Source: an uncultured virus (IMG/VR IMGVR_UViG_3300037067_016944)
Taxonomy: Duplodnaviria > Heunggongvirae > Uroviricota > Caudoviricetes
Length of the DNA stretch: 64,000 nucleotides
Virus record (IMG/VR): IMGVR_UViG_3300037067_016944
Strand: one strand, 5' to 3'
Of this stretch, positions 34,396-58,191 are shown one piece after another (position 1 is the first letter of the stretch; each line of letters begins with the position of its first letter). Position numbers and translations under genes: made by a program. Below the pieces are notes generated by a model, which saw only the letters and a program-made list of their open reading frames with translations, did not search any database and had not been told where the DNA came from.

Positions 34396-34854
34396 TCAAT
34401 TCTTGCCGTATCCCGGCATCGTCCGGATGGCAGCGGCGAGAATCTTCGCCTTCGCCATATCGCCAGCTTCTACGGCGTCGAGAAGGTGGAAGAACACCGC
34501 CCTTGCTTCCTGGTTGACCGGCTCCACTTGCGGCGTCGTCATGCCCTTCCGCTGTCGCATGGCAATCAAAGCCGGATGGTCAGGATTGGCATGGCCGACA
34601 ACGTTTGGGCGATGCTTCGGACCGAATTTGTATTGAGCACCTTGGCCCTTGACCAGGACACCGACAAACGGGTTGGCCGGTCGATTCGGCTTGATATCGA
34701 CGACGACCATCTGCTGTCGGCCACCATAAAGCTGCACGATATCGAAAAGCTTGATCTCTGGCATCGAGGTCGTCGTCATGGTTCTCCTCATGGCTTCCAA
34801 TCCGGCTTGGATTTGGGGGTTCGGATGGATAGGAGCAAAATCGGCGGCTTGCAT
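34396..34854 (-). CDS. hypothetical protein
   Basis: Promoter 34890 plus GGGAG SD. Confidence 0.7.
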   Translation of the reverse strand: MQAADFAPIHPNPQIQAGLEAMRRTMTTTSMPEIKLFDIVQLYGGRQQMVVVDIKPNRPANPFVGVLVKGQGAQYKFGPKHRPNVVGHANPDHPALIAMRQRKGMTTPQVEPVNQEARAVFFHLLDAVEAGDMAKAKILAAAIRTMPGYGKN

Positions 34855-34926
34855 TTCATTCTCCCTATGTGATGGTTCCCTCGTACTTGGTTATAGCACG
34901 ACTAGAGGGAACTATTAACCGGGACG

Positions 34927-35516: not shown

Positions 35517-35774
35517 TCAGAACCCGTTCTGCTTGAGCCATTCGACTTCGGCAGCAAGCGCGTCCGACCGTAATCGTCGTGGTTCTAGCTTCGGACCACC
35601 GACCGGTGACATGTCGGCTTGCCACATAATGTCGCCAGCTATGCTCTTGACCGGCTCCACGTGGCTTGCACGGCTGATTGTGGTTTCGCCTTCGTCGTAA
35701 AGAGGAGCAAAGGCGTCGTTGTGAATCGCACTGATGCTGCCGTCTTCATGGATCGTCATTTCAATGGTGCACAT
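35517..35774 (-). CDS. conserved protein of DUF1257/DUF2997/AAA clusters
   Basis: ISRASHVEP...W.ADMSPVGGP.L....RSDALAAEVEWL. Confidence 0.75.
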   Translation of the reverse strand: MCTIEMTIHEDGSISAIHNDAFAPLYDEGETTISRASHVEPVKSIAGDIMWQADMSPVGGPKLEPRRLRSDALAAEVEWLKQNGF

Positions 35775-35943
35775 GATTCGCCATGGTCTGCTGGTACATT
35801 TCTGGGGTGGGTTTGTCGGCGGTGACGGTGCCGAGAGCGCGTTCGACGGTCTTCGTGACGTCTTTGCAGGCTGTGCCAGCCACGCCATTCACCTTGATGG
35901 TCGGTGTCCCGTCAGGAGCGATTGTGATTTCGACGACTTGCAT
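35761..35943 (-). CDS. DUF2997 family protein
   Basis: VEITIAPDG...I.V.GV.G..C...T..VE.ALG. Confidence 0.85.
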   Translation of the reverse strand: MQVVEITIAPDGTPTIKVNGVAGTACKDVTKTVERALGTVTADKPTPEMYQQTMANHVHH

Positions 35944-35953
35944 GGTTGGTTCC

Positions 35954-36397
35954 TTATCGTTTTGTGCAGACGAGCCGCACATTGCCGTTTTGGTCTTGCT
36001 TCTCGCTGGTCGACCATCCCTGATTTCGCATAGTCTTGGTGGCGACCGCCACGCCGTAGCGTTGCTTAAGGTGGGCCATGCCTTGGCCGAACACCTTAGT
36101 CAAGCCACCAGCACTCCACTCGTCGGCGACGACCCGGAAAGAGCCGTTCGGCTGTTTGACCAAGCCGATGTCGTAGCTGCACTGTGGGTGGCTGATGATA
36201 TGATCACACTTGCCGTAGTTCTCAGGCTTGATGCCTTGGCGATACGCGGCGTTGTCCGCGCTGTAGTCGTTCATCCAGCGGCCATACCACCGGAACGTCT
36301 TCTGATCCCTGACAAGCTCGGCTCCGAGAGCTTTCGCAGCCGTTTCGAGAGCTTGCAGGTCCTTCACTTCGAGTTGGATTGCTACTACGTGCGACAT
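35954..36397 (-). CDS. DUF1257 family protein
   Basis: MSH......KDL.AL..A...LG; YDIG; D.W; LKQRY. Confidence 0.8.
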   Translation of the reverse strand: MSHVVAIQLEVKDLQALETAAKALGAELVRDQKTFRWYGRWMNDYSADNAAYRQGIKPENYGKCDHIISHPQCSYDIGLVKQPNGSFRVVADEWSAGGLTKVFGQGMAHLKQRYGVAVATKTMRNQGWSTSEKQDQNGNVRLVCTKR

Positions 36398-36749
36398 GGT
36401 TGGTTCTCCTGTACCTCGTTATAGCACGAGGTGACTATTTCCTTAATCGAGGTTGATGACCCTAATAGGGGTGTCAAGGTCAGGTATTTCTAAGGACTTC
36501 GGCTTGTTTTGTATGTCGGGTGGTTGGCCGGTCGTTGGTGGCCAGTGTATGGTTGAACCACCATAGCACCAAGTTGTACCAGTCCCCCAAGCCGTTGTCG
36601 TATCGGTGTCCTGCTTAAAGTAGATCGGCTCGTTGTCGGTTGTGTGGTCGAACAGTCCGCTATTGTCGAGGTTCGAGCCATCAGACCCGTCAAGAAGATA
36701 GAAGGCGGCTCGAATTGCTCGATATGGCCAAAGGAGGATACGCCAGAAG

Positions 36750-37718
36750 CTATTCATCGTCATCTTCATCGTCGTCAAGGTGAAGAACTCGGTTCGGCAA
36801 CTCCTGCAGGAGTTTGTCCAGGTTCTCTTTCACCACTGACATACGTGAAGCGACGAACGTCGAAGCTTCTTCATCCTCTCGGATTGATTCCGGAGTGCGA
36901 CCGGCGAGAACTTCTTTGGCTTCGTCGGCAAGCAGAGCCAATTCCTTATCGCCGCAGACGTTGCGGGCTGAGAATAGCTCCAGGAAATCGACGATCTTGG
37001 TGATGGTCGTGGCAGCGAACTTCTTGCGACTCCCATCGGGTCCAGGGGTCAGACGCTCAACAAGGTGCTCGATTAGCTTGTGGAAGCCGACACGAAGGGC
37101 AGCTTTGACCTGCAAGGCCATATCCTTGATTTCATCTGTATGCCGCTTGTTTTCCTGGTAGGCAATCGCTTTGCTTACCTTCTTGTCGTTGGACGGCGAC
37201 CAATCAAACCAACGTCGCTCGACCCAGAATTTGGAGCGAAGAGCAAGCCGACCTGCTTCGGTGCTTACGTCGAAATAGTTGGTGGCGTCGAACTGGTCTT
37301 TCAACTCGATCTTGGCTTCCTCTACCAAGTCGGCGTATTCGGCGACGAAGTGGTCGGCCCACGTGTTGTATGCCTGCTCTGCGTTGTCAATCTTGTCGTT
37401 GAGATCATCGACCAGCGGCAGCGGCATCAGGTGGGTGCCCTCCGAGAACGGAGAACCCGGCACTTCTCGCTTCTTGCAATAGCGGCGAAGATCACGAGCG
37501 ATCAACAACATGTCGTCGTAGTTCTCGCTTGTCATGATCTTCTTGTTGAGACCCAGACGGTCCTTGTTGGCGGCTGTTTGTATCTTGGCGATGTTTCCCT
37601 TGCGAATCAGGCCGGTCTTGTGAAACCGGAGTAATAGGCAAGTCGTTAGGTCGAGGATGTTCACTTCGGCCTTATCTTCTGCTCTGGCTTCTTCGATGGC
37701 TGTCATTTTGTTCTCCAA
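36750..37718 (-). CDS. DUF3150-like protein
   Basis: All-helical 322 aa, L.DQFD..NY; typical neighbour of the AAA/DUF1257 cluster. Confidence 0.5.
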   Translation of the reverse strand: MENKMTAIEEARAEDKAEVNILDLTTCLLLRFHKTGLIRKGNIAKIQTAANKDRLGLNKKIMTSENYDDMLLIARDLRRYCKKREVPGSPFSEGTHLMPLPLVDDLNDKIDNAEQAYNTWADHFVAEYADLVEEAKIELKDQFDATNYFDVSTEAGRLALRSKFWVERRWFDWSPSNDKKVSKAIAYQENKRHTDEIKDMALQVKAALRVGFHKLIEHLVERLTPGPDGSRKKFAATTITKIVDFLELFSARNVCGDKELALLADEAKEVLAGRTPESIREDEEASTFVASRMSVVKENLDKLLQELPNRVLHLDDDEDDDE

Positions 37719-37814
37719 TGTGGATTTCGTTCCGGTACTTGGTTATAGCACGAATACCGGGAATTATTAACCCCGACAATCGCCCCCGCCGACCGGGGGC
37801 GACCGCCGATACCC

Positions 37815-38096
37815 CTACCGCTTCGAGGGGTCCGCCAACTTAGGTTTCTTGGCCTTGAACCGGATCACCTTGATGATCTGATACCGGCGAGCCTCACCGA
37901 TCATATAATCGCCATGTGGCCCCGTGAACAAACGATAGTCCCCGACGAGCCGGTCGAACACGATCCAGACGTCCACGCGATGCTGGAACACCAGCGCACG
38001 AGCCTCACTGAGCAAGCCACGAGAACGGACAGCCGACAGCATATCAGCGTACAGCATAGCACCACCAGGGCAAGAGTAAGGAATAGTAACCGCCAT
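37815..38096 (-). CDS. hypothetical protein (leaderless)
   Basis: ATG 6 nt after -10 of promoter 38103. Confidence 0.6.
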   Translation of the reverse strand: MAVTIPYSCPGGAMLYADMLSAVRSRGLLSEARALVFQHRVDVWIVFDRLVGDYRLFTGPHGDYMIGEARRYQIIKVIRFKAKKPKLADPSKR

Positions 38097-38210
38097 CCCC
38101 TGGTTATAGCACGGCGAGCGGGAATTATTAACCGCTGCAGAGAGAGCATGAAAAGAGGATGCCCCTCCCAGACGACCACGAGCCATCTGGGAGGGGCAGC
38201 ACACACAGGA

Positions 38211-39797
38211 TTAGCCTAGGTTCAAAGCCCGTTCCGGCTCGACCTTCTTCGGAATCTTGTAGACGCCTTGATGACTGGCGGACAGGTAACGGTTGTCTGC
38301 CGATGCTCGAAGGCTTTGGATTTCCTCTCGATCGGTCAGGCCGACCGGCGTGATGTAGGTGGCGGCATCGGCAATCGAAATGTCCATTCGATACGCCTTG
38401 TCGCAGCACTTCTTGATGTTGCGAGCCACCCAGCCGTCATCGTCATCGAAAGGCTCGTCCTTGATGCCGTACTTCTTGAGCCACACATCCCAAATCGGGC
38501 TGCGTTCGGCCTTCGGTGGCAGATCAAAGAAGAATGTGTCGGTGAATCGGGACTTCATGGCCGACGACAAGCCGCTGATGCTGTTGCTCGTCGCCAGCCA
38601 CAGCGTATCGGTGCCGCCGATAGCTTGCACCACCTTCAACGCCGCTCTGATGTTGGTTTGGCTTTGACCGACCAAGGAACCTTGCATAGCTCCAAGGTCA
38701 ATCCGGATGACAACGCGGTCGAACTCGGAGCCAACCGCCTTGCAGATGGCTGACTTACCGCAACCAGGGACACCCAATAGCATGACGCCGAAGACATCGA
38801 AATCTTCCATCCAGGAAAGCAACGTGCCTTCCTGGTCCTGATTGACGCCGCTGGTGTCGCCACGAGAAGCCAAACCGGTCTTCTCGATTTCATCCAACCA
38901 GACGATCACTTTCGGCTGTCGCTTGCCGGTCATGATGCGGCTTAAGTAGGTCTTGATCTGGTCAAGACCACCAAGGTCCGCGAACTTCTCGCCACCCCGA
39001 TGGATCGAAAGCCCCTTCGTCTGCTCGACTTGCTTCCGCTTCGCAACCCAGCAGTGTTCGAGATCGATGCCGAATTTCGGCTTCTGACCGATGACCGGTT
39101 CGCTACGCAAGGCCATCGAAATGACCTGCTCTGCTCCAAAGTGAGGCAATCCCTTGACGGACTCGACAACACGGCCAATCGCGTCGTCATCCGCCACCGG
39201 TCGCTTCGTCTTGACGCCGGTGCCTTCGCATTTCTTGCAGGATGAACGAGGAGCATTCTTGCCCTGATTTGTGCAGTCGCACTGGCTTGCCAACTTATCA
39301 AGCCCCTTTGCCAACTTCGCTAGCTGCTCCTCGTTGGGCATCGGCTCGTCGATGATGACGACATCGTTCTTGAGATTGAGTGGTAAGACGATCACTTCGG
39401 ACAGCAGGACGAGGGTCTTACAGGACGCCTTGAACTTGTCGCGAAGATTCCAGACGGCTTGCTTGACGACCGGGTTTTCGAGCCAATCACAAGCACCCAG
39501 CATGAAAACGATCGTGTTTTCTGGTAGAGTGTCGGGATTAGCGAGTTGGCACAAGAACTCAATCGGCTGCGTGATTTGCGGGTTTTCGTTCAGAGCGGAC
39601 GCCGATTTCAGCGCCGCTTGATTATGACCAACAATTCCACTTGCCGCATTCCATGCCATCACGGGGGACGGGACAGGGATTTCGCTGCATTCCTTCAACA
39701 GCACGCTGATGGTAGCGGCAGCATCGTTCGATTCGATCCCAATGAGAGGGACACCAACACGACGGGCAGCGATGAATTGTTCGGTGAAAGAGAGCAT
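38211..39797 (-). CDS. Ycf46-like AAA+ ATPase with rearranged motif order
   Basis: FADLGGL, WLDEIEK (Walker B), GVPGCGKS (Walker A), GSLVGQS, ATSN, SRF..FFFDLP. Confidence 0.9.
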   Translation of the reverse strand: MLSFTEQFIAARRVGVPLIGIESNDAAATISVLLKECSEIPVPSPVMAWNAASGIVGHNQAALKSASALNENPQITQPIEFLCQLANPDTLPENTIVFMLGACDWLENPVVKQAVWNLRDKFKASCKTLVLLSEVIVLPLNLKNDVVIIDEPMPNEEQLAKLAKGLDKLASQCDCTNQGKNAPRSSCKKCEGTGVKTKRPVADDDAIGRVVESVKGLPHFGAEQVISMALRSEPVIGQKPKFGIDLEHCWVAKRKQVEQTKGLSIHRGGEKFADLGGLDQIKTYLSRIMTGKRQPKVIVWLDEIEKTGLASRGDTSGVNQDQEGTLLSWMEDFDVFGVMLLGVPGCGKSAICKAVGSEFDRVVIRIDLGAMQGSLVGQSQTNIRAALKVVQAIGGTDTLWLATSNSISGLSSAMKSRFTDTFFFDLPPKAERSPIWDVWLKKYGIKDEPFDDDDGWVARNIKKCCDKAYRMDISIADAATYITPVGLTDREEIQSLRASADNRYLSASHQGVYKIPKKVEPERALNLG

Positions 39798-39874
39798 GGC
39801 TTTTTATCCTGTGTGTTCGGAGCGGACCTCCCGCCCTCGTGCTTAGTTATAGCACGAACAAAGGGAATTATTAA

Positions 39875-39905
39875 CCGAGGGCCGGTTTACTGGACCGGCC
39901 CTCGG
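39875..39905 (-). terminator. hairpin/terminator before promoter cassette
   Basis: CCGAGGGCCGGT / ACCGGCCCTCGG inverted repeat. Confidence 0.6.
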
Positions 39906-40189: not shown

Positions 40190-40273
40190 TTTGATTCCCG
40201 TGTGTGTGTTCGGGGCGGGCCTCCCGCCCTCATGCTTAGTTATAGCACGAGAAGCGGGGATTATTAACCGAGA

Positions 40274-40576: not shown

Positions 40577-40638
40577 TTCGATTCTCCTGTGTGTTGGTCA
40601 TCCCTCGTACTTGGTTATAGCACGGAAGGCGGGAATTA

Positions 40639-41034
40639 TTAACCGGCTTGCTGGTCCTTGAAGGCAAATTCAAGTTCAGTGATGTGCTTGTCGGCCAGAG
40701 TCTTTCGAGCCTCTTGCTCTATCTCAGCGGTCCATTCTTCTCCCTGAATACACCGCCAACCAGACCCCCAACTGACGCGAAAATACGGCTTGCCAGCTAT
40801 GACGATCTTCTCAACAGGAATCAAGACCGGTGGTATAGCGTCGTCGTCCGGTTGAAAACAGCCGATGTTGTATTCTGCTGGACCGTATTTCGCCAACGTT
40901 TCACCTTCCAGCGGTCGCTGTTTTCTCCCAAATGTGACACGGAAGCGAAAAAGACCGTTGTGCCCCTCGATCTTCCAACGATTTATTCGCTTGCCGTTTT
41001 TCATGGCACGTTGTGCCAAAGGTAGATTGTTCAT
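40639..41034 (-). CDS. hypothetical protein
   Basis: Start re-called at MNNLP (ATGA overlap with the repaired upstream gene). Confidence 0.65.
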   Translation of the reverse strand: MNNLPLAQRAMKNGKRINRWKIEGHNGLFRFRVTFGRKQRPLEGETLAKYGPAEYNIGCFQPDDDAIPPVLIPVEKIVIAGKPYFRVSWGSGWRCIQGEEWTAEIEQEARKTLADKHITELEFAFKDQQAG

Positions 41035-41377: not shown

Positions 41378-41490
41378 TCTCCTGTGTGTCGGAGCGGTAC
41401 TCCCGCCCTCGTACTTGGTTATAGCACGAGGGCGGGAACTATTAACCGGAAGGCCGGTCCACTTCGGTGGACCGGCCCCGCCCCGCGAAG

Positions 41491-41868
41491 CTACACCCCT
41501 ACAGGTTCGGCGTCTGATTTCTCCAGGTCAGCCCGCATATCAAAACCCCAGTCAGATTGGATTTGGGCTGCGGCTGCGGCGAATCGGGGGCTATCGAGAA
41601 TCGACCGGATTTGATTCTTTCTCTCTTCCGGCTTCCAGGACAGACCAGGATAAAAGTCCCATAAGAAGTCCTCGAAATCGTCGTAGCAATCGGGGAGGCC
41701 GTTCGCGGCGACACCCTCAAGATGACGGAGGTTGAACTCGACAAACCAAGCATCCGAATGCATTTCTCCCACTTTGGATGCTTCGGCCATCATGGCGTCA
41801 TGGATGGCAACTTCATTTTCAACGACGTGCGGATAGAAACGAGACATGTGAAACTCCTGTATGTACAA
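41491..41868 (-). CDS. hypothetical protein
   Basis: Promoter cassette; start likely 41847 (MSRFY) after AGGAG. Confidence 0.7.
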   Translation of the reverse strand: MYIQEFHMSRFYPHVVENEVAIHDAMMAEASKVGEMHSDAWFVEFNLRHLEGVAANGLPDCYDDFEDFLWDFYPGLSWKPEERKNQIRSILDSPRFAAAAAQIQSDWGFDMRADLEKSDAEPVGV

Positions 41869-41927
41869 AGGACGGAACCCCCGCCCATGTCAGGTTATAG
41901 CACGACGAGCGGAAACTATTAACCGGG

Positions 41928-42748: not shown

Positions 42749-43270
42749 TTTCGTAGCTCCAAGTTGAGTCGGTTTCGTCTGCTTGGTTATAGCACGACGA
42801 GCGGAAACTATTAACCGGACCGTTTGGATACTACGACGCCCATGGTGACGACGAGCCACCATGGGCGTTACACAGGAACATTATTTCGGTTTTTCGAAAG
42901 TGACTGGCGGACCATCCCACATTCGAATAGGTCGAGCAGGATAAAGCACTATGTCGCCTTGAGCGTTCAGTTTCACCATCCCTAGGGTGTTGCCAACGCC
43001 GTCCTTCAACTTCGTCAACCTAGAGGTTAACTTAATCTGTTTTGTTTCCATAGAGGAAAGGGCTAAACCACTCCTATCGGCAAGTCGGTCTTTTCGGTCG
43101 TCACCTTACCGCCGTTTCGGACAGCCCAATCGGCACGACTGGCGAAATCCCTTTGGGCGTCTCGGTCGTCCCAGTCGATAACCCGCTTGTGACACTCGCC
43201 CGTGTCGGCATAAAAGACAGTGCAGAGGACCTTCAACACGATTCATTCCTTTCCAGGTAGGAAACCAACA

Positions 43271-44188: not shown

Positions 44189-44389
44189 TTCGCGGAATCC
44201 TGTGTAGTACCAGGGTCGTGAGGGCCGGACCGAATTCGGTCGTCTCGTCACCCTCTCCCGGTACTTGGTTATAGCACGCGACGAGCCGGTCATTAATTCT
44301 CTCTTCGCCGACGAGCCGGTTAATAGTTCCCCTCTGTCGTGCTATAACAAGGTGGATTTCACCATTGTTTTTCTTTTTCGGAGTTTTAC

Positions 44390-44761: not shown

Positions 44762-44814
44762 TACGGTTAATAGTTTCCTCCTCTAGTGCTATAACTAGGT
44801 AGGAGGAAAAGAAC

Positions 44815-45060
44815 ATGAGATCACCAGAGTTCAAAGCAGCCTGCAAACTGGCATTCGACAGAGTGGTTGACCTGTCGAGTGAAAACGACGACAGCTTTTG
44901 GGGTTTCGGCCTTCCAGGATTCAAGCCGATCATGGCGACGATCCGCCAAGCAGCCAAGGCCATCCGATACCAATGCTGGCAGCTTGACGGTGGTATCGAC
45001 AACGACAACCTACAGGAATGTCGGGTTGCCTTCCGCAAGAGCGTCACCGTCGTCGGTTAA
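44815..45060 (+). CDS. hypothetical protein
   Basis: Promoter 44784 plus AGGAGG SD. Confidence 0.75.
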   Translation: MRSPEFKAACKLAFDRVVDLSSENDDSFWGFGLPGFKPIMATIRQAAKAIRYQCWQLDGGIDNDNLQECRVAFRKSVTVVG

Positions 45061-45104
45061 CAGTTCCTTCTGCTCGTGCTATAACCAAGTAGGAGGAAAC
45101 CACG

Positions 45105-45347
45105 ATGGGATACCAAAAAGAGATCGAGCTAGCCAAGAGCCTTGGCTATACTGTCGAAAAGCAACGCTTGGTCGGTGATCCGCCGATCTTCAGCCGGTCG
45201 CGTCTACCACATCCTCGAATCAGGATTTGGGAATGCGTCCACGATTGCAAGATTCGTTGGGCGTGTGCCGAGTTGGACAACGGTGGCTGGAAGAATCACC
45301 GCTACTATGCGGACTTGACCGAAGCCATCACGAAGGAGGCGAAATAA
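45105..45347 (+). CDS. hypothetical protein
   Basis: Promoter 45074 plus AGGAGG SD. Confidence 0.75.
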   Translation: MGYQKEIELAKSLGYTVEKQRLVGDPPIFSRSRLPHPRIRIWECVHDCKIRWACAELDNGGWKNHRYYADLTEAITKEAK

Positions 45348-45595: not shown

Positions 45596-45922
45596 GCTGG
45601 ATGGCCTGTCGTGCTATAACTAAGTAGGAGGGACGAAGATGAACCGCGACTACTGGTTGGACCAAGCCGAATTGCAGCTACAGCAAACAGGAGACGACTA
45701 CAATGAAGCGGACGTGTCGAGTTTAGCTGATGCCATGATGATCGAGGAGCAGTGCACATGTTAGCAACAATCATGCTGGCCTTACCACCAACGGGCTGGC
45801 AAATCATAGAAGACGACGGAGAGACCGCCCCCGTCATTATGGCGGTCGACGGAGGTTGGCCTTGACGGGGCTGGCCTGCCGTCGCAATAGACGCCACGTG
45901 GTAATGGCGTAGCGACGACAGT

Positions 45923-45957: not shown

Positions 45958-46629
45958 TTATTATTTCTCTTCGGCTTCTGTGCCGACAAGGTTCTTTTCG
46001 TATCAACCGTCTAATCTTGACGGCCACGGAAATAATCCCGCGATGCCTGAACAGGGCACATCTTGGGTATTTCTATATACCGAACCCCCACCCCCTCTAT
46101 GGGGAGAGTATAGGTAATTATGCCCCAAAAGTACTACTGTTAAGCCTATGGGGGTCGGGTTTTTCTCCCTATCGAATATACTTTCCGCATGCGTGAGAGG
46201 CTGATATATTCCTCTTTCAGTCCGAGCATCTATTAACTGCTCTCTTTCCTTCAAGATGATGGCTTCCGTCTCCGTTTTTCTTTCAGACTTCACTTTTCGC
46301 TTTTAGGCTAATCAAGACCGGGAAGATTGGGAAGCGGGGAAGCGGGGAACGTTCGTCATTTACTTCTCCCCCGGAACAATGCTCAATGCACAGGAGGACC
46401 CGATATCGAATTTCCGCGAGAATAAACTTCCAAATGTGCGAAGGGATGACCATATCCCAAAGCGACTCTATGGTTGGAAAGAGCGGGCGATGCAAGCCTT
46501 TCAGACCCCAGATAGCGAAAAACTCCGTTTTGAGTAATTGGCCTGGGGGTCCAAACGACGAAAAGGACTCTAATGTGGAGAAGACGAATCAGGCACCTTT
46601 AGACACTAACAGAGTCACTCAGAGGTTGT

Positions 46630-47007
46630 TCAACCTCTGTCGGCCAATAAAACAAGGCAGCAATGGGCAAGTTTTTTCTGCGACAGCCCGATTGTTTCGC
46701 TTGCTTTTATTAGCTTTTGATGGGTTGCGATATCGACAATGCGTGTTTTACGGCCCAATGCCTTATCGCACCCCATTCTTTTGAAAAGCGACAAAACATC
46801 TTCGAGATATCGATCGCAAGCTATTGTAAGGGCTTCACGAAAATTCTCGGCACCAGAAAGTCGAATCACATCTGTAAGAAACTGGGAATCGGCCTCAAGA
46901 TTTATCATGGATGTGCTTGGCCGCTTCTTACCACACATCGGGCAAAATGGAGTCGTTCTAGTCTTACCACAACAGACGAACAATGTGAGGTCTTTAGTTC
47001 TTCGCAT
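46630..47007 (-). CDS. zinc-ribbon plus putative ribbon-helix-helix protein (paralog family)
   Basis: CCGKTRTTPFCPMCG; shared C-terminal domain. Confidence 0.7.
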   Translation of the reverse strand: MRRTKDLTLFVCCGKTRTTPFCPMCGKKRPSTSMINLEADSQFLTDVIRLSGAENFREALTIACDRYLEDVLSLFKRMGCDKALGRKTRIVDIATHQKLIKASETIGLSQKKLAHCCLVLLADRG

Positions 47008-47008
47008 G

Positions 47009-47572
47009 CTATTCTGGTTCTTGGGGCTTAGGTGGCAAATCAGTATCGGCAAAAAGAGTCATGACCGCTCTTATGATATCAGTGCGAGGAACACCATATT
47101 TCGATGCAACCTCGTCAAGTTCTTCGATATTCGATATGCTGACGGGCCAGATTCTTATATTATCTGATTGTCGCTGGCTAAATCCGGCAGATTGTAAGTT
47201 TTTATCGACAACCGGCAGAAATGTGCCAATGGCTTCGTCCAACGCATCACGAAAATTACCGGTCTTTACCTTAGCTCTTGCTCGCTCAACAATTTCCGGT
47301 GCGAAGCCTATCTTCACCATTTCACGCTTGCCGATATTACGCCGCATGCCTTTCGGAATATCTCCGATATCTGGAAATTGGTGTCCGCAGCCGCATTTTT
47401 GGTCACGCCATTTAACCCATCCTCTGCATACCGGACACATCCGACGCCCAGTACCCGGCGTATAATGGACCAAAACGCCGTTGACATCGCGAAAGAAAAC
47501 AAAGCCACATTGGCATGTTGATACGGCACCTGGAACGTGTTTGAAGCAGTTGGGACAATGCCTATTTGCCAT
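47009..47572 (-). CDS. double zinc-ribbon plus putative RHH protein (paralog family)
   Basis: CPNC..CQCG, CPVC..CGCG; NFRDALDEA..; YGVPRTDIIR. Confidence 0.7.
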   Translation of the reverse strand: MANRHCPNCFKHVPGAVSTCQCGFVFFRDVNGVLVHYTPGTGRRMCPVCRGWVKWRDQKCGCGHQFPDIGDIPKGMRRNIGKREMVKIGFAPEIVERARAKVKTGNFRDALDEAIGTFLPVVDKNLQSAGFSQRQSDNIRIWPVSISNIEELDEVASKYGVPRTDIIRAVMTLFADTDLPPKPQEPE

Positions 47573-47610
47573 TTAAAGATCCTTTAGTCCTGGTCTATCT
47601 TACCTGGAAG

Positions 47611-47862
47611 TTAGCAGACGCCGTGACACTTTGGTCCTGGCATACTTGCCAAAACTACGCCGTCATCGTAAGCATGTCCGCTATGAAGTTCGCTATTGCT
47701 AGCACCCGTGCGGTCCACGACGCTCAACTGGTCCCCTTCGGTCATGAATTCGAGCCGTTCAGGGCACGCCTCTAGACACCGTTTCATCCGATAAACCCAC
47801 TTACGTTCTTCTGGCGTAAGGTGTGGAACTTTCAGCTTAGAGTTTTCGATGATTTTGAACAT
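47611..47862 (-). CDS. hypothetical protein
   Basis: AGGAG SD. Confidence 0.6.
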   Translation of the reverse strand: MFKIIENSKLKVPHLTPEERKWVYRMKRCLEACPERLEFMTEGDQLSVVDRTGASNSELHSGHAYDDGVVLASMPGPKCHGVC

Positions 47863-48257
47863 GGTTCTCCTTTCTGCAATTCCTCATCAACATAAACCTT
47901 AAGGCAGCAACGAGCTAATTCTGCGCGTGTTATGCCTAAAAGGGCACTAGCTCTAGTGATCTTGTCATAGGTATCATACGATATCTGATACCCCAGAGTG
48001 TTCTCAATATTGGGACGCATATAACCGGCATGCAGAAGACGCTCAACTACCGTATCGAGGCATTTATCACACGCTGCTGCAAATGCTTGACGAAAAGGTG
48101 GTCCTATTGAAGATACTAGCCGTTTCGCCATACCGGGATCGAGATGAAGTTTCATCTGTACCAGCGGTGGTTTTACACCTAGTCGTTTGCCACATATAGG
48201 ACAAAATGGAGTTGCTCTCGTTTCACCGCAGCAAGCATATGGCGTAATTTCGTTCAT
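47832..48257 (-). CDS. zinc-ribbon plus putative RHH protein (paralog family)
   Basis: CCGETRATPFCPICG; LGITRAELARCC. Confidence 0.7.
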   Translation of the reverse strand: MNEITPYACCGETRATPFCPICGKRLGVKPPLVQMKLHLDPGMAKRLVSSIGPPFRQAFAAACDKCLDTVVERLLHAGYMRPNIENTLGYQISYDTYDKITRASALLGITRAELARCCLKVYVDEELQKGEPCSKSSKTLS

Positions 48258-48258
48258 A

Positions 48259-49410
48259 TTACTTCTTACGATTCTCCCAGTTCTTTGGTGACAACGCTAT
48301 TTCTGGCGGGTATGATTGCAGTCTGCCAAACAGACTTGGAGGTGTGATCCCAAGCCTGTTTGCCCACTGAGTGAGTGTCATCGTTTCGCCGTCGCAAGTG
48401 AGCGAATTTTTGCGTGTGTGTAGCTTTACGGCCTGCTCAATGGTGTGATCCCGAAGATATTGGTAAAGAGTGTTCTCTTTGCACCGTAGCTTGGTTGCCC
48501 ATTTCCTTATCGATAGCGTTTCGCCATCATGCGTATATTCCTTGTCCAGCCAATCAGGGAGGCCAATCCAGAATCTTTTCATATCTCTGCTTTTACCAAC
48601 CCAGGTTGGATTCGCCATAGCTATCTGGCGATGAAACTCCTCGTCTTTTTTAATCAATCGAACCAACCGTCTGGCTAATTTAGGCTGCTCTTTGATTGAT
48701 GGCCGCTTGACTCCGCTCGCAACCATTTCGAGGAACATCTTCTTTTCTTTCTCGTCTTCATGCCGCACAATCTCAACCTTGGTGTCGCGGAACCAGTCGG
48801 GACGAATCAGTTTCAACTTGGCGGTGAACTCGGCGTCGTAGGCGTGTTGGGAAGGAGAAGTGAATCGCTCGATGGCTTCAGCGAATCTCATCTCTTCATC
48901 GTTCTTGGCAGACTTCCTGTGTATTCGCTTGCCACCGGCTAAGGCGTATGCCAATATCTCTTCCTTGAGCTTGATAACTCGTTCGTCTCTGTCGGGGTCG
49001 AACCATTCCGGGCGAAGGGGCTGGAATATCTCGGGATGTCGACCAATCTGGTTATCTATCGCCATACCATGCTTGCCAGATCTCCACCCCGGTCGCGGTG
49101 CCCCGCTTTTAGCAAGTTTCAAGGCTTCCTGAAAAGCCTTTGCAGATCTCTCACGCCTATCGGGGTCAAACCAATCGGAAGGGACGGCACGTACTCTAAT
49201 ATCAAAGGAGAAGTCGTATGCATCGCCTCCCTTATCACAAGCTGCGTCAAGAGTCCTAGCCAAACTACTCTCGTCAAGATCTTTACTATACCTGTTTGGA
49301 CGCGGCTGACCAGAGCGAACCATCTCCAGCAATCTGGCTTTTCTGGCTCCAATTGCTATGTGTATAGCTTCGCGGGTCATGCCAGCAAACCAAAGCTCTC
49401 TTCGTGCCAT
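48259..49410 (-). CDS. repeat protein with C-terminal DNA-binding modules
   Basis: Four ~60-aa units ending in a P.WF-like motif; two T.DGET....WA..L modules. Confidence 0.75.
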   Translation of the reverse strand: MARRELWFAGMTREAIHIAIGARKARLLEMVRSGQPRPNRYSKDLDESSLARTLDAACDKGGDAYDFSFDIRVRAVPSDWFDPDRRERSAKAFQEALKLAKSGAPRPGWRSGKHGMAIDNQIGRHPEIFQPLRPEWFDPDRDERVIKLKEEILAYALAGGKRIHRKSAKNDEEMRFAEAIERFTSPSQHAYDAEFTAKLKLIRPDWFRDTKVEIVRHEDEKEKKMFLEMVASGVKRPSIKEQPKLARRLVRLIKKDEEFHRQIAMANPTWVGKSRDMKRFWIGLPDWLDKEYTHDGETLSIRKWATKLRCKENTLYQYLRDHTIEQAVKLHTRKNSLTCDGETMTLTQWANRLGITPPSLFGRLQSYPPEIALSPKNWENRKK

Positions 49411-49539
49411 ACATAACCTCCAACGTCATGGTTATAGCACGAGAGGCGGGAACTATTAATTCCGTGATAACTAACAGCCGAGTTAATAATCACTCGCGTT
49501 CGTGCTATAATTTCATGAACCGCCAACCAGGAGAACAAT

Positions 49540-50442
49540 ATGGCTAAATGGCACGAATTTCGGACGTTGTGGGCAAATGCAAACTCTAACCCCCGGATGA
49601 GGGGTGCGTGCATCGACATCCATCAATTTTATGCTGGTCTCATTAAGCGATACACCGATAGGCAGAAGAGAGCGAGACCAGGATCGGCTGAGTCGTACGA
49701 CAGTGCGATGGAGACAAGGTGCGAATACTACTGGATACGGACCGGGAAGCCGTACTACCGGCTGTACCCAGGTGTCATCAAGCCATTCCTCAGGCTTGAT
49801 GCAGATAAAGTGGACACAGGTCTGCTGAAGATACCCACCAATAACACGCTGATGATCCAGATGCCGGTGGGTGGAGTGGTTGTAAACGGCATCGAATTAC
49901 GCAACATCGTCTTGTGCAAAGTGAATATAAACGATCGGCAGTCAGACGGTATGTATGCGATGATAGAATATGCCGAAGAAGGAACAATGCCGCACGAAAA
50001 CGAAAAGATTTATACGGCCTACCTGACGACGCCATTCAAATCAGGGTTGATGTTAGGAGCGTTACTGAACGAGTCGTCCGTGACAGTAGAAGGCGGGATG
50101 GCAATACCAAAAGAATTACAGAAAGCTGCAATAAAGATTGTTGCAGTTTGTCTGCTGCTGGAGAATGATCCGGAAGTCATTCAGCCGGACGTGTTGAACG
50201 ACGACTTGGCGAAGTTCAAACAAACTCTCGATCCGAAATACATCGAGAAGGCGAAACGACGCGGTAAGTTCGGATGGGTCATTGGACGAGATATTGAGGT
50301 TTCGCCGCATGTTCGAGCGGCATCGCCATTTGCTCTGTATTGGACAGGAAAGGGGCGAACAATACCGATCATCCGTTATCGCAAGGGTTGCATCGTCCAT
50401 CGGGAATTGGTTGAAAAAATTCCAACCGGATTTGGAGGGTAA
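49540..50442 (+). CDS. conserved phage hypothetical protein
   Basis: Promoter 49500 plus AGGAG SD; C-terminal PH.R....W.G.GR motif. Confidence 0.75.
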   Translation: MAKWHEFRTLWANANSNPRMRGACIDIHQFYAGLIKRYTDRQKRARPGSAESYDSAMETRCEYYWIRTGKPYYRLYPGVIKPFLRLDADKVDTGLLKIPTNNTLMIQMPVGGVVVNGIELRNIVLCKVNINDRQSDGMYAMIEYAEEGTMPHENEKIYTAYLTTPFKSGLMLGALLNESSVTVEGGMAIPKELQKAAIKIVAVCLLLENDPEVIQPDVLNDDLAKFKQTLDPKYIEKAKRRGKFGWVIGRDIEVSPHVRAASPFALYWTGKGRTIPIIRYRKGCIVHRELVEKIPTGFGG

Positions 50443-50443
50443 G

Positions 50444-50749
50444 ATGCGAGAACTTAAACGTCCACGTCGTTATCAAGTCGTCAGAATACATCAAGAAGAA
50501 TACGACGCTTTGTATCGATTCTACAGGAGAGTTGGAGTAGAGAGATATGATGCTATGCTCCAACTAACCAAGCATGTGAAAAACATTACTGATGACGATT
50601 TTCCAGCAGAACCGACCGCAGCAGCACGTCTGGTATTGCCACCAGAACTCGATGAAGAAGTAAAGACACAAGCAAAGCGTCTTGGTCGATCGTATGTTCG
50701 AGTGTTGATGGCTGCAGTCAAGAGATGGGAGAAGGCGAACACAAAATGA
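50444..50749 (+). CDS. putative RHH/CopG-like DNA-binding protein
   Basis: LVLPPELDEEVK..AKRLGRSYVRVLMAA. Confidence 0.6.
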   Translation: MRELKRPRRYQVVRIHQEEYDALYRFYRRVGVERYDAMLQLTKHVKNITDDDFPAEPTAAARLVLPPELDEEVKTQAKRLGRSYVRVLMAAVKRWEKANTK

Positions 50750-51393
50750 CGGATAAAGAATTAGCGTTTGTTGATTATTTAGCAAGGAAATATCTGACGC
50801 CCAAAGGAAATATTAGTTGTGTTTTTACCAAACAGATGGATCTAACAACGCCGGAGATACGTAATGCGGTGTGGGAGAAGATAGGCGATAAAAGGGAGCT
50901 CGACTATCAGCAATCAAAGAATAGAAAATCCAGTTGGCAAGCGGCGAAATTGGTGATGCGGGAGGAGAGCGAGACCGTCTCTAATCCGTTCATATGCTGC
51001 AACGGCCAGATCATCACGACGCCAAGATGCCCAGTCTGTGGTAAAGGTGAGAATGGTAGGAACGTCAAGATCGAAAACAGGAGATGGATATGCTTGAGGC
51101 TTTATGACGACGATTTCGATTTCATGAGGTCGCTGGCGAAGAAGACTAACAGCCCCACGCTATATGACGCATTAGAGAAGCTGATACCGACTGTCAACAA
51201 CCTGACACATGAGGACGTACCAACACCAACCAGGAAAGGAAGAAGAGTATCGATCTCACATGCACTCAACAACGCCATCGTAGCGAAGATGGAAGAATTG
51301 AATGCTGGTATACCGGCATCGTCGTTAACCGCACGAGCAACTTTCATGCGAGTGCTGCTGGTCGCAGCCAAAAAGTATGCGAGAGAGGAATAA
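50746..51393 (+). CDS. zinc-ribbon plus putative RHH protein (paralog family)
   Basis: CCNG..ITTPRCPVCG; TFMRVLLVAA. Confidence 0.65.
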   Translation: MTDKELAFVDYLARKYLTPKGNISCVFTKQMDLTTPEIRNAVWEKIGDKRELDYQQSKNRKSSWQAAKLVMREESETVSNPFICCNGQIITTPRCPVCGKGENGRNVKIENRRWICLRLYDDDFDFMRSLAKKTNSPTLYDALEKLIPTVNNLTHEDVPTPTRKGRRVSISHALNNAIVAKMEELNAGIPASSLTARATFMRVLLVAAKKYAREE

Positions 51394-51435
51394 AAGATAA
51401 GCTGCGTCCATCAACAGATACCGGAGATATGAAGG

Positions 51436-51777
51436 CTATTCACCGAATACCATATCGCTGGCACTCTTCACGAAGGCATCAACAACTCTAGCCTCGCCTT
51501 CGTTAATAGACCCATCAGCAATACCTTTTTCAGTCAGGCGTTTTATGATGGGTTCTGCTTGGAGTACCGTATTCTCAAGCTTAGTGGCTCGCAGATCAAG
51601 GTCTGCGATTGGTCTGCGAAGACGTTCAGCAATGCCGTCGCGAACAGAACCAGCCAATCTGCATGCTACGCTGATGCACTCATCAAGCGACTGCCCAACT
51701 ATGCGTTCTCTGACGTAATCACGCAACCCACCACTGGCAAGTTTCTTGACACCGCCAATATCAATACGAATTGCCAT
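51436..51777 (-). CDS. hypothetical protein
   Basis: ORF; start uncertain. Confidence 0.5.
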   Translation of the reverse strand: MAIRIDIGGVKKLASGGLRDYVRERIVGQSLDECISVACRLAGSVRDGIAERLRRPIADLDLRATKLENTVLQAEPIIKRLTEKGIADGSINEGEARVVDAFVKSASDMVFGE

Positions 51778-51897
51778 CTTGAAATTGTAATGAAGAATGT
51801 GCTTGACCACGGCTAGCACGCTCTACAGTACCCATTGGACGACCGACTTCTGCCATGCCTATCTCCTTTTGTTAGAGGCATGGATGAAATACATCAG

Positions 51898-52542
51898 CTA
51901 GTCTGGTGCTTTGGCTATCAATCTAGCGGCTGCGAGTAGAATAGTCAAGAAAGGTTCATTATTGGATATTCTCCGAGCGATTGCCGCTTCAAGCTCATCT
52001 GGTATGTCGATCCTGCACGACTTCCTGTTATGCTTTTTGATTTTTTCAAATGCACCAGAATTATCAAGCGATTTGATAATCGGCACCAATTCGCAAAGAG
52101 CTTCATGGCGGGTGACGATACCGTGGCGACCACGACCAAGATTTAGTAGCAACTCCCTGTCTTTGGATGGAAGCCGTAGGATAATTGTTTTTCTACTCAA
52201 TCCAGCTTCTTCTTTTTTGCGTCTATTGCGTTCAGTTTCCGTATAGCTGTCGCGATCTGGTTCATTCCAATTGTCATCTATTGGATGTTCTGCACGATAA
52301 TGGCGTGCCGCTGTTAGCAAAACGTGGAGATACTTGTGATCGGTCTTATTCGTATTCGACCTATATATACGCCTAATTGCAGTTTCAAGTTCATTTGGTA
52401 TTTTCAGACGCAGTGGTGCGCGGTCTTCTATTTGATCTGGTTGAGTTTTAACGACCGGTATAAGGTCTACCAATGCTGATAAATCAATGGAGTGTAATAA
52501 ATCGCGGTCTTCTGGATACAGAGCGAAAATTTTATGGGACAT
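51898..52542 (-). CDS. tandem-duplicated putative RHH protein
   Basis: Internal repeat RLKIPNELETAI..VLLTAAR / RIDIPDELEAAI..ILLAAAR. Confidence 0.7.
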   Translation of the reverse strand: MSHKIFALYPEDRDLLHSIDLSALVDLIPVVKTQPDQIEDRAPLRLKIPNELETAIRRIYRSNTNKTDHKYLHVLLTAARHYRAEHPIDDNWNEPDRDSYTETERNRRKKEEAGLSRKTIILRLPSKDRELLLNLGRGRHGIVTRHEALCELVPIIKSLDNSGAFEKIKKHNRKSCRIDIPDELEAAIARRISNNEPFLTILLAAARLIAKAPD

Positions 52543-52546
52543 AATG

Positions 52547-53023
52547 TTAAATCTGCTCCAACAAAATGGAGGCGTAGATGGACGCTTCGCGATTCGGGAT
52601 GTACCGAACGTCGTCTGGAATGTCGTTCGTTGAACACCAGAGATAAGGTGGTGGGTCGGCTGCCGTCCACCTGACACCAAGGGTCGTGGCAGCCGTTTTC
52701 AAGTGCCTGATACTGAAATCAACTATCTCCTGCTCTTGCAACAAGCCGACCCAGCAGTGCATTTCGGGAAGGTTCCCGAGAGCGACGGAGAAAGCACTCG
52801 TAATGTCGCCGGGGCTCCACATATAAGCGAAGTGGGTAGAGACGACGCCATCGTCATCCTCTGGACGTAAGCAGGGCCACTGTAGGGAGCCCGCTTGGAT
52901 GACGGCCTTATATCCGTGGCGAGCGAGGACGGCTATCGTCTCTTTGGCATAGTAGATGCACAAACCGGGCCTATCGTCCAGATTCGAAATAGCCTGTTCG
53001 ATCTCTAATACTAACTCTCTCAT
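52547..53023 (-). CDS. hypothetical protein (Cys-His-Asp, possible transglutaminase-like fold)
   Basis: GLC....; MHCWV; EIVD; leaderless after promoter 53029. Confidence 0.6.
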   Translation of the reverse strand: MRELVLEIEQAISNLDDRPGLCIYYAKETIAVLARHGYKAVIQAGSLQWPCLRPEDDDGVVSTHFAYMWSPGDITSAFSVALGNLPEMHCWVGLLQEQEIVDFSIRHLKTAATTLGVRWTAADPPPYLWCSTNDIPDDVRYIPNREASIYASILLEQI

Positions 53024-53077
53024 ACTAGATTATAGCGTGAGAGAAGGTAATTATTAATATGCTAGCAAAGTTATGGT

Positions 53078-53725
53078 ATGAAATTAAACCTACTAGCTGA
53101 AGCGTGGAGGCGGCCAAGAGTCGCAAAGCCGACAGAATATGTCAATCTATTGAGATTATATGAAAAATACTGTGCTGGTGATAAAGACGCACTAAGGAAA
53201 TTCGTCGATACTGCAGACGGCATATTGTTGTTCTATCTCGACAACAAATTTCCGTATTATTTGACTATTGAGGACTTAGAAGATGCTGCCAATCGTGCTA
53301 TAGCGTATGTAGCAACACGCAAAATGCCTGGAAAGTTCAAATCGGCTCGTCATCTGTTGAACTATCTCGAAGCTGCGGCTAGAACCGGTGCTATAAACGC
53401 CATACAAAAATCGCAGCGATTTGATAAGGGAAATGCCGGATATGCATCTTCAAAACCAGAAGAAATACCGAAAACACCAGAACCCCTTGTGCCTCTAGAT
53501 AAATTGCTTGATGCGTACAGAAAATATTACGCCGAACAATCGAAGATAAGGCAAATGCCTCCGATGGCAAGATCAGTAAAGATATTGCAGAGACGTGCAA
53601 ACGGTCAGAGTCTTGAGGAGATTGGCAACGATCTTGGGATTACAAGAGAGCGGGTTAGACAGATTGAAGCAAGAGGCATAAGAAACCTGCAAGTCTTTGC
53701 TCAACATTATACTTCTGATAACTAA
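53078..53725 (+). CDS. sigma-70-like protein (region 4)
   Basis: SLEEIG..LGITRERVRQIEARGI region 4.2; degenerate region 2. Confidence 0.8.
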   Translation: MKLNLLAEAWRRPRVAKPTEYVNLLRLYEKYCAGDKDALRKFVDTADGILLFYLDNKFPYYLTIEDLEDAANRAIAYVATRKMPGKFKSARHLLNYLEAAARTGAINAIQKSQRFDKGNAGYASSKPEEIPKTPEPLVPLDKLLDAYRKYYAEQSKIRQMPPMARSVKILQRRANGQSLEEIGNDLGITRERVRQIEARGIRNLQVFAQHYTSDN

Positions 53726-55203: not shown

Positions 55204-55260
55204 GCAAAGATAACTCGTTTTGCACTTCCGAAACCATGAATCTGGTTATAGCACGACAAA

Positions 55261-55821
55261 ATGGCAGATTTAATTGTTTCAGCCGGTTTCAAATCTGGTA
55301 AATTGACGGCCATCGAGCCAATTCTTGGCGGCAAGTTTTGGCTATGCCATTGTGAATGCGGAAAAACAACGAAAGCCTCAAAATGGCACCTATTGAGGGG
55401 GTTGCGACAGAGCTGCGGATGTCGTACTAAGCAAAAGCCACAAATAATCACCTGCGTGATATGTGGCCACGAAGGAACAATAGATGATTTCTATTCACGT
55501 AAAAATGGTAATATAAATTCATATAAGTGTAAGAGGTGCTTAATTAGGTTGTCGCATGAAAGACAACGCAAAACACGTCTAAAGGTATTACGACACTATG
55601 GTGGAGAGACGCCGAAATGTGCATGCTGCGGAGAATCACATACAGAATTCCTATCTATCGACCATATCAATGGTGGCGGGAATAAGCATAGGAAAAATAA
55701 CAAGATAGTGTCAATATACGCTTGGCTTTATAAACACAAGTTTCCTGATGGTTTCCGCGTCCTCTGCCATAACTGCAACTTTTCTTACGGCTTGTACGGC
55801 TATTGCCCGCACGTTAAGTGA
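55261..55821 (+). CDS. HNH endonuclease
   Basis: W.C.CECG..SCGC N-terminal module; CACCGE...IDHING...LCHNCN. Confidence 0.85.
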   Translation: MADLIVSAGFKSGKLTAIEPILGGKFWLCHCECGKTTKASKWHLLRGLRQSCGCRTKQKPQIITCVICGHEGTIDDFYSRKNGNINSYKCKRCLIRLSHERQRKTRLKVLRHYGGETPKCACCGESHTEFLSIDHINGGGNKHRKNNKIVSIYAWLYKHKFPDGFRVLCHNCNFSYGLYGYCPHVK

Positions 55822-55907
55822 ACCTTCGGCCTCTGAGACATGTCCTTGACAGGGAGGGCAAATACGTATTTAATTAATTATTGGTCAGTTTTGTGCTATA
55901 AGCAAAT

Positions 55908-56060
55908 GTGCTGTGTGGCGCAGAGGTGGGCTACTTCGCCTACGGAGCGGGTGGTCGCGGGTTCGAATCCCGTCGTTGGAGCAACACTGGAAACAGTCGC
56001 GCTCGACGTAGCTCAGTTGGTAGAGCACCTACGTACCTACTTCGCTTATTCCCACAGCAC
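55908..56060 (+). ncRNA. Y RNA (YrlA-like) 1, permuted tRNA mimic with ACG anticodon-like loop
   Basis: Terminal stem GTGCTGTG/CACAGCAC; T arm GGTTCGAATCC precedes D arm TAGCTCAGTTGGTAGAGC; upstream of Ro60; starts at promoter 55891. Confidence 0.85.
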
Positions 56061-56072
56061 TTTTTGACAATA

Positions 56073-56120
56073 AAGAGCACATGAACTCGCGGTAATATGA
56101 CTGCGACGGATTGTGCTCTT
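56073..56120 (+). other. long hairpin between Y RNAs
   Basis: AAGAGCACA/TGTGCTCTT and TCGCGGT/ACTGCGA stems. Confidence 0.6.
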
Positions 56121-56126
56121 ACGATT

Positions 56127-56210
56127 TGCTGCATGGCGTAGAAACGGGTTACTTCGACTTGAAATCGATTGTCCGAAAGGACATTGCTCGTTTCGCTTGT
56201 TCCTGCAGCA
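56127..56210 (+). ncRNA. short Y RNA 2 with UGA anticodon-like loop
   Basis: Same TGCTG..TGGCGTAGA / TTCGCT..TTCC..CAGCA core as neighbours; no D or T arm. Confidence 0.8.
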
Positions 56211-56221
56211 TTTTTTGAAAC

Positions 56222-56620: not shown

Positions 56621-56631
56621 GCCCTACGAAA

Positions 56632-58186: not shown

Positions 58187-58191
58187 CAATG

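Follow-up and report, generated by a model that had tools for sequence, protein, structure and literature searches.

A phage Ycf46-like AAA ATPase whose Walker B block precedes its Walker A block

The DNA analysed here (hereafter the window) is the whole 64,000-nucleotide (nt) stretch of an uncultured virus, IMG/VR record IMGVR_UViG_3300037067_016944. On its minus strand it encodes P0001, a AAA protein in which the Walker B unit precedes the Walker A unit, and we find that this swap is real and goes beyond chance. Few enzyme folds have been studied as thoroughly as the AAA core, which, to our knowledge, has always been described with one order: Walker A, Walker B, sensor 1. The literature searched, from which most subscription journals were absent, yielded no account of a AAA core in which Walker A follows Walker B. 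We think it very probable that P0001 is a functional two-domain, Ycf46-like ATPase of the classical AAA type, from a phage and prophage clade in which two core blocks have been exchanged. The β3-loop-α3 block with Walker B comes first, and the β1-α1-β2-α2 block with Walker A and pore loop 1 second.

Motif order

The gene and the parts of its product are listed below from the N terminus; motifs were read from the sequence.

38211..39797, minus strand: AAA gene, the open reading frame (ORF) of a 528-residue two-domain AAA ATPase, stop codon included
39027..39797, minus strand: N-terminal domain, residues 1-257, α/β plus helical, no Walker motifs (from the model, phrog_8638 positions 22-201 and hhalign)
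38916..39026, minus strand: linker plus helix α0 with GGL, residues 258-294, now running into the Walker B strand
residues 276-278, minus strand: GGL motif in helix α0
38793..38915, minus strand: relocated block of β3 (Walker B), GDTSG loop and α3, residues 295-335
38889-38906, minus strand: Walker B motif IVWLDE, residues 298-303, with D302 and E303
within residues 313-332, minus strand: GDTSG and LLSWMED
38613..38792, minus strand: Walker A block of β1, P-loop, α1, β2, pore loop and α2, residues 336-395
38751-38774, minus strand: Walker A motif GVPGCGKS, residues 342-349
38661-38678, minus strand: pore loop SLVGQS, residues 374-379
38514..38612, minus strand: β4 with sensor-1 N405, α4, K415/R417 (Arg-finger region) and β5, residues 396-428
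residues 402-405, minus strand: ATSN (sensor 1)
residues 416-418, minus strand: SRF
38214..38513, minus strand: C-terminal helical lid and tail, residues 429-528 (from phrog_8638 positions 408-558 and the model)

The core runs β3-α3-β1-α1-β2-α2-β4, which is not the chain order of classical AAA proteins. An earlier note, made from the letters of this DNA, had listed the motifs in exactly the order in which they occur in the protein; only its Walker A coordinates were one base off.

Two adjacent blocks are exchanged

Profile comparisons place the two blocks out of order whichever reference is used. The AAA family PF00004 recognizes P0001 (E 1.1e-14, 55.4 bits against a cutoff of 21.2) in two stretches, the best of which covers residues 338-391 only and corresponds to profile positions 1-54 (E 2.5e-9). 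Scanned alone, the preceding residues 291-334 match the following profile positions, 56-96 (E 2e-4). The phage family phrog_8638 matches P0001 (E 7.3e-34) in four separate stretches rather than colinearly: its positions 365-403, the Walker B block, are matched ahead of positions 307-364, the Walker A block. The flanking stretches on P0001 are the N-terminal domain (positions 22-201) and the C-terminal part (408-558). NCBIfam gave weak matches in the P-loop region alone (IteA, CdvC and PAN; 17-31 bits against cutoffs of 500-650). Colinear profile methods see half of the domain, the best Pfam stretch being 54 residues long, so that permuted proteins are under-annotated.

Solved structures and close relatives give the same picture. 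A profile of 62 homologs (A1), searched against solved-structure chains, matches VAT (5vc7_A) out of order, with positions 299-356 aligned to 321-378, 256-306 to 377-429 and 363-431 to 426-501; the three further PDB chains listed show the same pattern. The second region of homology (SRH) of P0001, with N405 and R417, aligns to the SRH of VAT and p97. Smith-Waterman alignment of single blocks to P0123, a normal-order relative, with z scores over 200 shuffles, puts the Walker B block best at P0123 residues 332-368 (z 8.3), the Walker A block at 272-328 (z 21) and the C-terminal part at 376-502 (z 15). Finally, hhalign against an alignment of 44 normal-order relatives (A3) gives a probability of 100%, E 6e-49 and 438 columns; everything else is colinear, and the Walker B block of the normal-order proteins faces a gap.

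The flanks, that is α0 with GGL before the blocks and β4 onward after them, keep their places, which identifies an exchange of adjacent blocks and not a circular permutation. Indeed, we saw none of the marks of the latter: joined old termini, new termini and altered flanks. The earlier note had proposed an internal segment swap of this kind, and the out-of-order matches to PF00004, phrog_8638, VAT and P0123, together with the colinear flanks, support it.

Predicted fold and residue covariation

The AlphaFold2 model of P0001, built with A1, is confident (predicted local distance difference test (pLDDT) 91.7; predicted template modelling score 0.85) and has the Walker B strand and helix ahead of the Walker A strand. 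Its elements are, in order, strand 297-301, helix 318-332, strand 336-342, helix 348-358, strand 362-366, helix 376-394, strand 398-404 and strand 418-424. A superposition of residues 259-504 on p97 D2 (3cf0_A) gives Z 17.1 and a root-mean-square deviation of 2.4 Å over 203 aligned residues; these residues also superpose on Vps4 and spastin. Over residues 2-504, the model matches p97 D1-D2 (7lmz_C, 210-763) with Z 18.3 and 399 aligned residues. About 200 of the roughly 255 domain residues align sequentially to classical AAA structures, a shortfall that would fit the skipping of a moved 40-residue unit.

Covariation offers a view of the sheet that is separate from the model. Mean-field direct-coupling analysis of 329 sequences (effective number 254) ranked 17,205 residue pairs. 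The best-ranked strand pair is β3-β4, which reaches rank 11 and accounts for 6 of the top 200 residue pairs, followed by β2-β3 (rank 26), β1-β5 (rank 101) and β1-β4 (rank 170); strand pairs not expected to be adjacent rank 224-508, apart from one pair considered below. The top pair overall is V297-G394, which joins the start of β3 to the end of α2; its equivalents are consecutive residues in normal-order proteins. Many pairs between α3 and α2 also rank highly. These couplings support a position of the moved strand β3 between β4 and β2, and the usual 5-1-4-3-2 sheet is probably kept, with new connections. Three loops would then be re-routed (α0 to β3, α3 to β1 and α2 to β4), each to a new target strand one or two positions from the old one.

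The permuted family and its catalytic residues

P0001 has a large family. A word-index search scored 8000 candidates, of which 420 proteins reached E <= 0.001; full-length identity goes down to 38% within the best 120, and all 11 homologs fetched (11/11) have the swapped order. An exhaustive profile search of representative clusters found 30,333 at E <= 0.001, 9,546 at <= 1e-10 and 3,556 at <= 1e-30, the last number including some normal-order kin. Among the best 150 representatives, 144 match as one full-length stretch; the other six (688-896 residues) match as two stretches, and two of these (P0016 and P0075) carry intein domains.

Block profiles sorted 540 pooled proteins into 389 permuted, 150 normal-order and one truncated; the pool was seeded with both forms, and the ratio is no measure of prevalence. 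None of the 540 has Walker B blocks in two places. A search for homologs with the same order, and for a second Walker B after Walker A that might be used instead, had been proposed as ways to test the observation; the first has been answered by the 389 permuted proteins and the second by this absence. A count of motif order by regular expressions was tried and proved too crude (76 of 261 proteins lacked some pattern); profile alignment and block profiles were used in its place.

The catalytic residues of the permuted family are strongly conserved, as counted on 261 family proteins aligned to the profile. E303 of Walker B is invariant (261/261), and D302 is Asp in 257 and Glu in 4. Walker A K348 is kept in 258, the remaining three being alignment gaps in intein-bearing rows, and sensor-1 N405 and Arg-finger R417 are each found in 253. 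The claim that the catalytic motifs are intact is therefore sustained in at least 253 of 261 proteins. In the pore loop, V376 and G377 are conserved in at least 90% of the 62 sequences of A1, and S379 is invariant.

These counts bear directly on whether P0001 might be a pseudo-enzyme, in which WLDEIEK only resembles a Walker B motif and lies away from the active site, the protein being inactive or using other acidic residues. Its ATPase activity is a prediction, and the lack of a precedent for the arrangement in the literature searched also favours such a view. However, near-invariance of D302, E303, K348, N405 and R417 would be unexpected in an inactive protein. Moreover, there is no other hhhhDE sequence between Walker A and sensor 1 that could take over the role, and no second Walker B anywhere in the pool; covariation sets the strand beside β4 and β2; and inteins sit in the P-loop of some homologs. 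We regard a pseudo-enzyme as very improbable.

Intein domains (PF14890, PF05203 and PF14528) occur in P0015, P0016, P0063, P0075 and P0084, and also in P0074, P0126, P0243, P0249 and P0267. The intein lies inside the P-loop, as GVPGC-intein-GKS, in the two homologs inspected.

The clade with the swap spans phages and prophages of many bacterial phyla. Species-representative genomes hold at least 322 relatives among the 602 pattern matches listed, several bacterial genomes have multiple gene copies, and the 80 bacterial loci kept comprise 54 from Acidobacteriota, 10 from Nitrospirota, 5 from Armatimonadota and 3 from Planctomycetota, the rest coming from six other phyla. Viral contigs encode relatives in 151 of 595 pattern matches, and the 80 viral loci kept divide into 51 permuted and 29 normal-order. 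In isolated phages, gp103 of Tunturiibacter phage Tunturi_3 is the sole full-length relative; of the 50,697 phage records searched, 42 gave a match.

Phylogeny and possible origin

For a tree we aligned the blocks separately and ran an IQ-TREE quick search on 66 rows (21 permuted, 45 normal-order) and 238 columns. Rows came from a redundancy filter on 528 proteins, with those longer than 680 residues or with over-long blocks dropped; the root is not fixed. A single branch, with a support of 99 in the SH-like approximate likelihood ratio test, separates all 21 permuted rows from the normal-order ones, and one change of order suffices. Nearest to them are four normal-order viral proteins (L131, L144, L145 and L146), split from the other 41 normal-order rows with a support of 100. 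The four share the short α0-to-β1 linker and the block signatures with the permuted proteins. One ancient swap within a phage lineage is the simplest reading. Most likely, the two blocks were duplicated in tandem and the outer copies were then lost.

An alternative is that nothing was transposed: the Walker B unit was lost from its normal place, and a strand-helix unit of unrelated origin before Walker A converged on the motif. The path of a duplication is not directly visible, no intermediate with two Walker B blocks having been found among the 540 proteins, and to this extent convergence gains. Nevertheless, the relocated block has a family-specific signature of the normal-order block that goes well beyond the DE pair, reading DEIEKGL..G.TDSGV...GTLL.W..D in the nearest normal-order relatives. 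It also aligns to the Walker B block of P0123 with the z of 8.3 given above and matches the corresponding parts of PF00004 (56-96) and phrog_8638 (365-403). Convergence on this scale strikes us as no more credible than an inactive protein.

Chain connectivity and assembly

The conserved spacing of the blocks addresses a further alternative, in which the β3-α3 unit completes the sheet of a neighbouring subunit by domain swapping in trans. Covariation is blind to the difference between contacts within and between chains, and would permit this. The tether is too short to reach another subunit, however. In the model α3 ends at residue 332 and β1 starts at 336, a link of three residues, and across the family junction lengths are fixed, with one residue between blocks in 373 of 379 proteins and two residues in 349 of 379. 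In addition, the confident monomer model has the unit in cis. We hold a swap in trans to be very unlikely.

The junctions themselves, near nt 38915, 38792 and 38609, are bridged by contigs from runs of two other studies. Record 17 of run X3 covers 38634-39021 with 0 differences, records 10, 11 and 12 of X2 and 25 and 26 of X4 cover the remaining junction stretch, and no indels are listed in the bridging contigs. Contigs of run X1 span everything and are possibly the window's own source, and so the bridging rests on the runs of the other studies. The suggested check for mis-assembly across the junctions has thus turned up none. A mis-joined or chimeric contig could be suspected, since the window is a metagenome-type contig and a repeated intergenic element makes some contigs loop back near 39810-39900, but the bridging at every junction and an order common to 389 proteins of independent sources and to a cultured phage genome (Tunturi_3) leave this possibility next to no weight.

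Relation to known AAA proteins and to other permuted enzymes

The closest comparison is with the normal-order phage relatives: phrog_8638, H10PHJ05_65 of phage HJ05 (P0263), QBX09687 of Streptococcus satellite phage Javan368 (P0123), and the viral proteins L131 and L144-L146. Their JGI name is 'SpoVK/Ycf46/Vps4 family AAA+-type ATPase'. They share with P0001 the N-terminal domain, GGL helix, P-loop, LVG pore loop, GD(S/T)G loop, sensor 1, Arg-finger region, C-terminal tail and gene partners, and they form the nearest tree branch. They differ in having the Walker A block ahead of Walker B, and their identity to P0001 is ~21-27%. With p97/Cdc48, Vps4, spastin and VAT, P0001 has its motifs and, as modelled, its fold in common; its core chain order differs, and by comparison with these proteins its N-terminal domain has lost all Walker motifs.

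Among isolated phages, Tunturi_3 gp103 (PP885686, annotated 'ATPase') aligns to P0001 at 35% identity over 97% of the query. It shares the permuted order, which the record annotation does not mention. No paper on gp103 was found in the literature searched. It lacks the four-Cys insert described below. It is followed by DUF1257 and DUF2997 genes; a DUF3150-like gene, which the record calls an 'HNH endonuclease', lies further along. This last product, gp96 (L001 9696-10655), matches the DUF3150-like profile at E 1e-104 and has no Pfam match at E <= 0.01; its 'HNH endonuclease' annotation looks doubtful.

Circularly permuted GTPases are a known permutation of a nucleotide-binding fold. Permuted DNA methyltransferases are another (PMC7824862), and the reference list of PMC10853773 has an entry for Bujnicki (2002) on them. 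In each of these cases, as in P0001, a conserved α/β nucleotide-binding core stays functional despite a changed chain order (predicted for P0001). The difference is that the GTPases and methyltransferases are circular permutants with new termini, whereas P0001 has kept its termini and flanks, the exchange being confined to two internal blocks.

The N-terminal domain

The domain N-terminal to the core is common to the normal-order relatives, as phrog_8638 and hhalign indicate, and within the whole-model match to p97/Cdc48 (Z 18.3, 399 aligned) its residues 1-257 superpose on D1. To judge by the model, P0001 appears to have two AAA domains in tandem, the first of them degenerate. The domain also carries a four-Cys motif:

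39216..39281, minus strand: zinc-knuckle-like insert CxC...CxxCxGxG, residues 173-194, pLDDT 74-76

The cysteines are C173, C175, C187 and C190, followed by EGTG. The earlier note had placed a zinc finger in the linker. The motif is present; in the model, however, it lies inside the N-terminal domain, between the strand-rich residues 1-171 and the helices of 204-257, and it is a clade-specific insert instead of an inter-domain linker element. Only 34 of 340 family sequences have it, and a double CxxCxGxG form occurs in more distant family members.

Possible function of the rewired ATPase

Going by clade membership, P0001 would assemble into a ring with ATP bound between subunits and R417 acting in trans, and would pull on a protein substrate by means of its LVG pore loop. 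Together with its gene partners, it may use ATP to remodel or unfold a protein as such a ring, the small partners being adaptors or substrates, and it would work in the same four-gene module as its normal-order relatives.

Several observations count against this picture of a normally folded, active ring. The usual pore loop 1 motif after β2 is aromatic-hydrophobic-Gly, and P0001 has Leu (SLVGQS) where a classical AAA protein usually has the aromatic residue. K415 stands where the family consensus is Arg. The pair β1-β2 has a covariation rank of 71, which is unexpected for a 5-1-4-3-2 sheet, and we infer the sheet order from covariation and geometry, not from the model itself. Ring formation, likewise, is suggested by clade membership only. 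No duplication-loss intermediate with two Walker B blocks was seen among the 540 proteins. Finally, the DUF1257 partner is of little help: its model (pLDDT 84.7) has no clear fold match (Foldseek E 0.069; Z 5.0 in a wide VIA search).

If P0001 is indeed an active AAA ATPase, the fold tolerates a non-circular change in connectivity. The permuted and normal-order proteins, found in one module, are matched natural pairs with which the role of connectivity in folding, ring assembly and the coupling of hydrolysis to the pore loops could be tested. We also entertain, as a rather unlikely addition, that the rewiring is not neutral and alters the coupling of substrate or partner binding to ATP hydrolysis, which would perhaps explain the wide spread of one swap. 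New direct links run from the N-domain and α0 to the Walker B strand, from pore loop 2 and α3 to the P-loop, and from pore loop 1 and α2 to sensor 1; hydrolysis might, for example, be gated by the N-domain or by DUF1257/DUF2997. Were this so, the family would be a natural test of covalent connectivity in the allostery of AAA motors.

A conserved gene module

Three partner genes lie close to the AAA gene in the window and downstream of it, all on the minus strand, and complete a four-gene module:

36750..37718, minus strand: DUF3150-like partner, 322-residue ORF; PF11348 match weak (E 0.005, 16.6 bits, below the cutoff of 24.9)
35954..36397, minus strand: DUF1257 (Ycf35-like) partner, 147 residues; PF06868 E 3e-8, 34.2 bits against a cutoff of 22.2
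35761..35982, minus strand: DUF2997 partner, 73-residue ORF; PF11211 E 8e-15, 54.9 bits against a cutoff of 24.1; phrog_23133

The likely start of the DUF3150-like gene is an ATG 12 nt downstream of the ORF start. Its homologs in loci L074, L054 and L025 pass the PF11348 cutoff, and atlas clusters also back the assignment. NCBIfam has no matches for the neighbour proteins of the AAA gene, and the best match of DUF1257 to PDB profiles, at E 0.058, is not a clear one.

The partners recur. In 80 sources with the AAA ORF (78 genome loci, Tunturi_3 and the window, several of the loci being short contigs), a DUF3150-like gene is present in 66, DUF1257 in 62 and DUF2997 in 61. A first iterative DUF1257 profile drifted to over-long ORFs, and cleaner profiles were rebuilt for the counts in viral loci:

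Viral contigs with permuted AAA (n = 51): DUF3150-like 48, DUF1257 27, DUF2997 24
Viral contigs with normal-order AAA (n = 29): DUF3150-like 17, DUF1257 24, DUF2997 23

Aeromonas phage HJ05, for instance, has a normal-order AAA gene and then DUF1257 and DUF2997. Since both forms have the same partners, the permuted AAA protein corresponds to the normal-order one within one conserved module. We found no description of the function of this module in the literature searched.

Ycf46 of cyanobacteria and plastids is a AAA protein of the type found in the phages. A cluster made up of a DUF2997 gene, ycf35 (DUF1257) and the ferredoxin gene fed7 is conserved in cyanobacteria (PMC4284462). Taken with these facts, the phage module hints that Ycf46 may be functionally linked to Ycf35/DUF2997.

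Five bacterial loci were scanned for their surroundings. Four of them (L056, L010, L018 and L050) have neighbours of replication or nucleotide metabolism, and L006 gave nothing. The neighbours include class II ribonucleotide reductase, DnaG-type zinc-ribbon proteins, SNF2/ResIII helicases, single-stranded DNA-binding protein, DNA polymerase III beta clamp, RusA, Sipho_Gp157 and AEP primase. Along with the multiple copies in several genomes, this suggests that the bacterial loci are prophage-like or other mobile elements. The window also encodes an NAD-dependent ligase, a helicase, HNH endonucleases and a nucleotidyltransferase. From the neighbours in the window and in the bacterial loci, the module sits among phage replication or early genes.

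Sequences around the AAA gene

Two non-coding features flank the AAA gene:

39810..39879, minus strand: one copy of an intergenic repeat, immediately upstream of the AAA start, promoter-like by eye
38160..38198, minus strand: terminator-like hairpin with an 18-bp stem (11 GC pairs) and a T-run, directly after the AAA stop

Given this hairpin, the AAA gene would seem to be transcribed as a separate unit; among the data sets listed for this stretch, none is of RNA. The listed ORF at 37815-38204 is unlikely to be a real gene; family searches gave it no match.

The repeated element, ~40-70 nt long, stands upstream of many genes on both strands, including the AAA, DUF3150-like and DUF1257 genes. 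On the plus strand its core is TTGGTTATAGCACGA, then 6-9 nt, then GGGAAyTATTAACC. Copies lie at 34854-34923, 36408-36447, 37706-37775, 38074-38133, 39810-39879, 40203-40272, 40578-40647, 41382-41451, 41858-41927, 42757-42816 and 44258-44297, and in inverse orientation at 44317-44374, 44764-44821, 45054-45111 and 45605-45631. The forward copies are followed by AGGAGG and then ATG. By eye the element resembles a -35/-10 pair with a 17-nt spacer; a sigma-70 scan did not call it a promoter. The copies may be a phage-specific promoter set.

The G+C content is 52-55% in window positions 18000-46000 against 45-49% in the flanks (1-18000 and 46000-64000), and phage-type genes occur in both the middle and the flanks.

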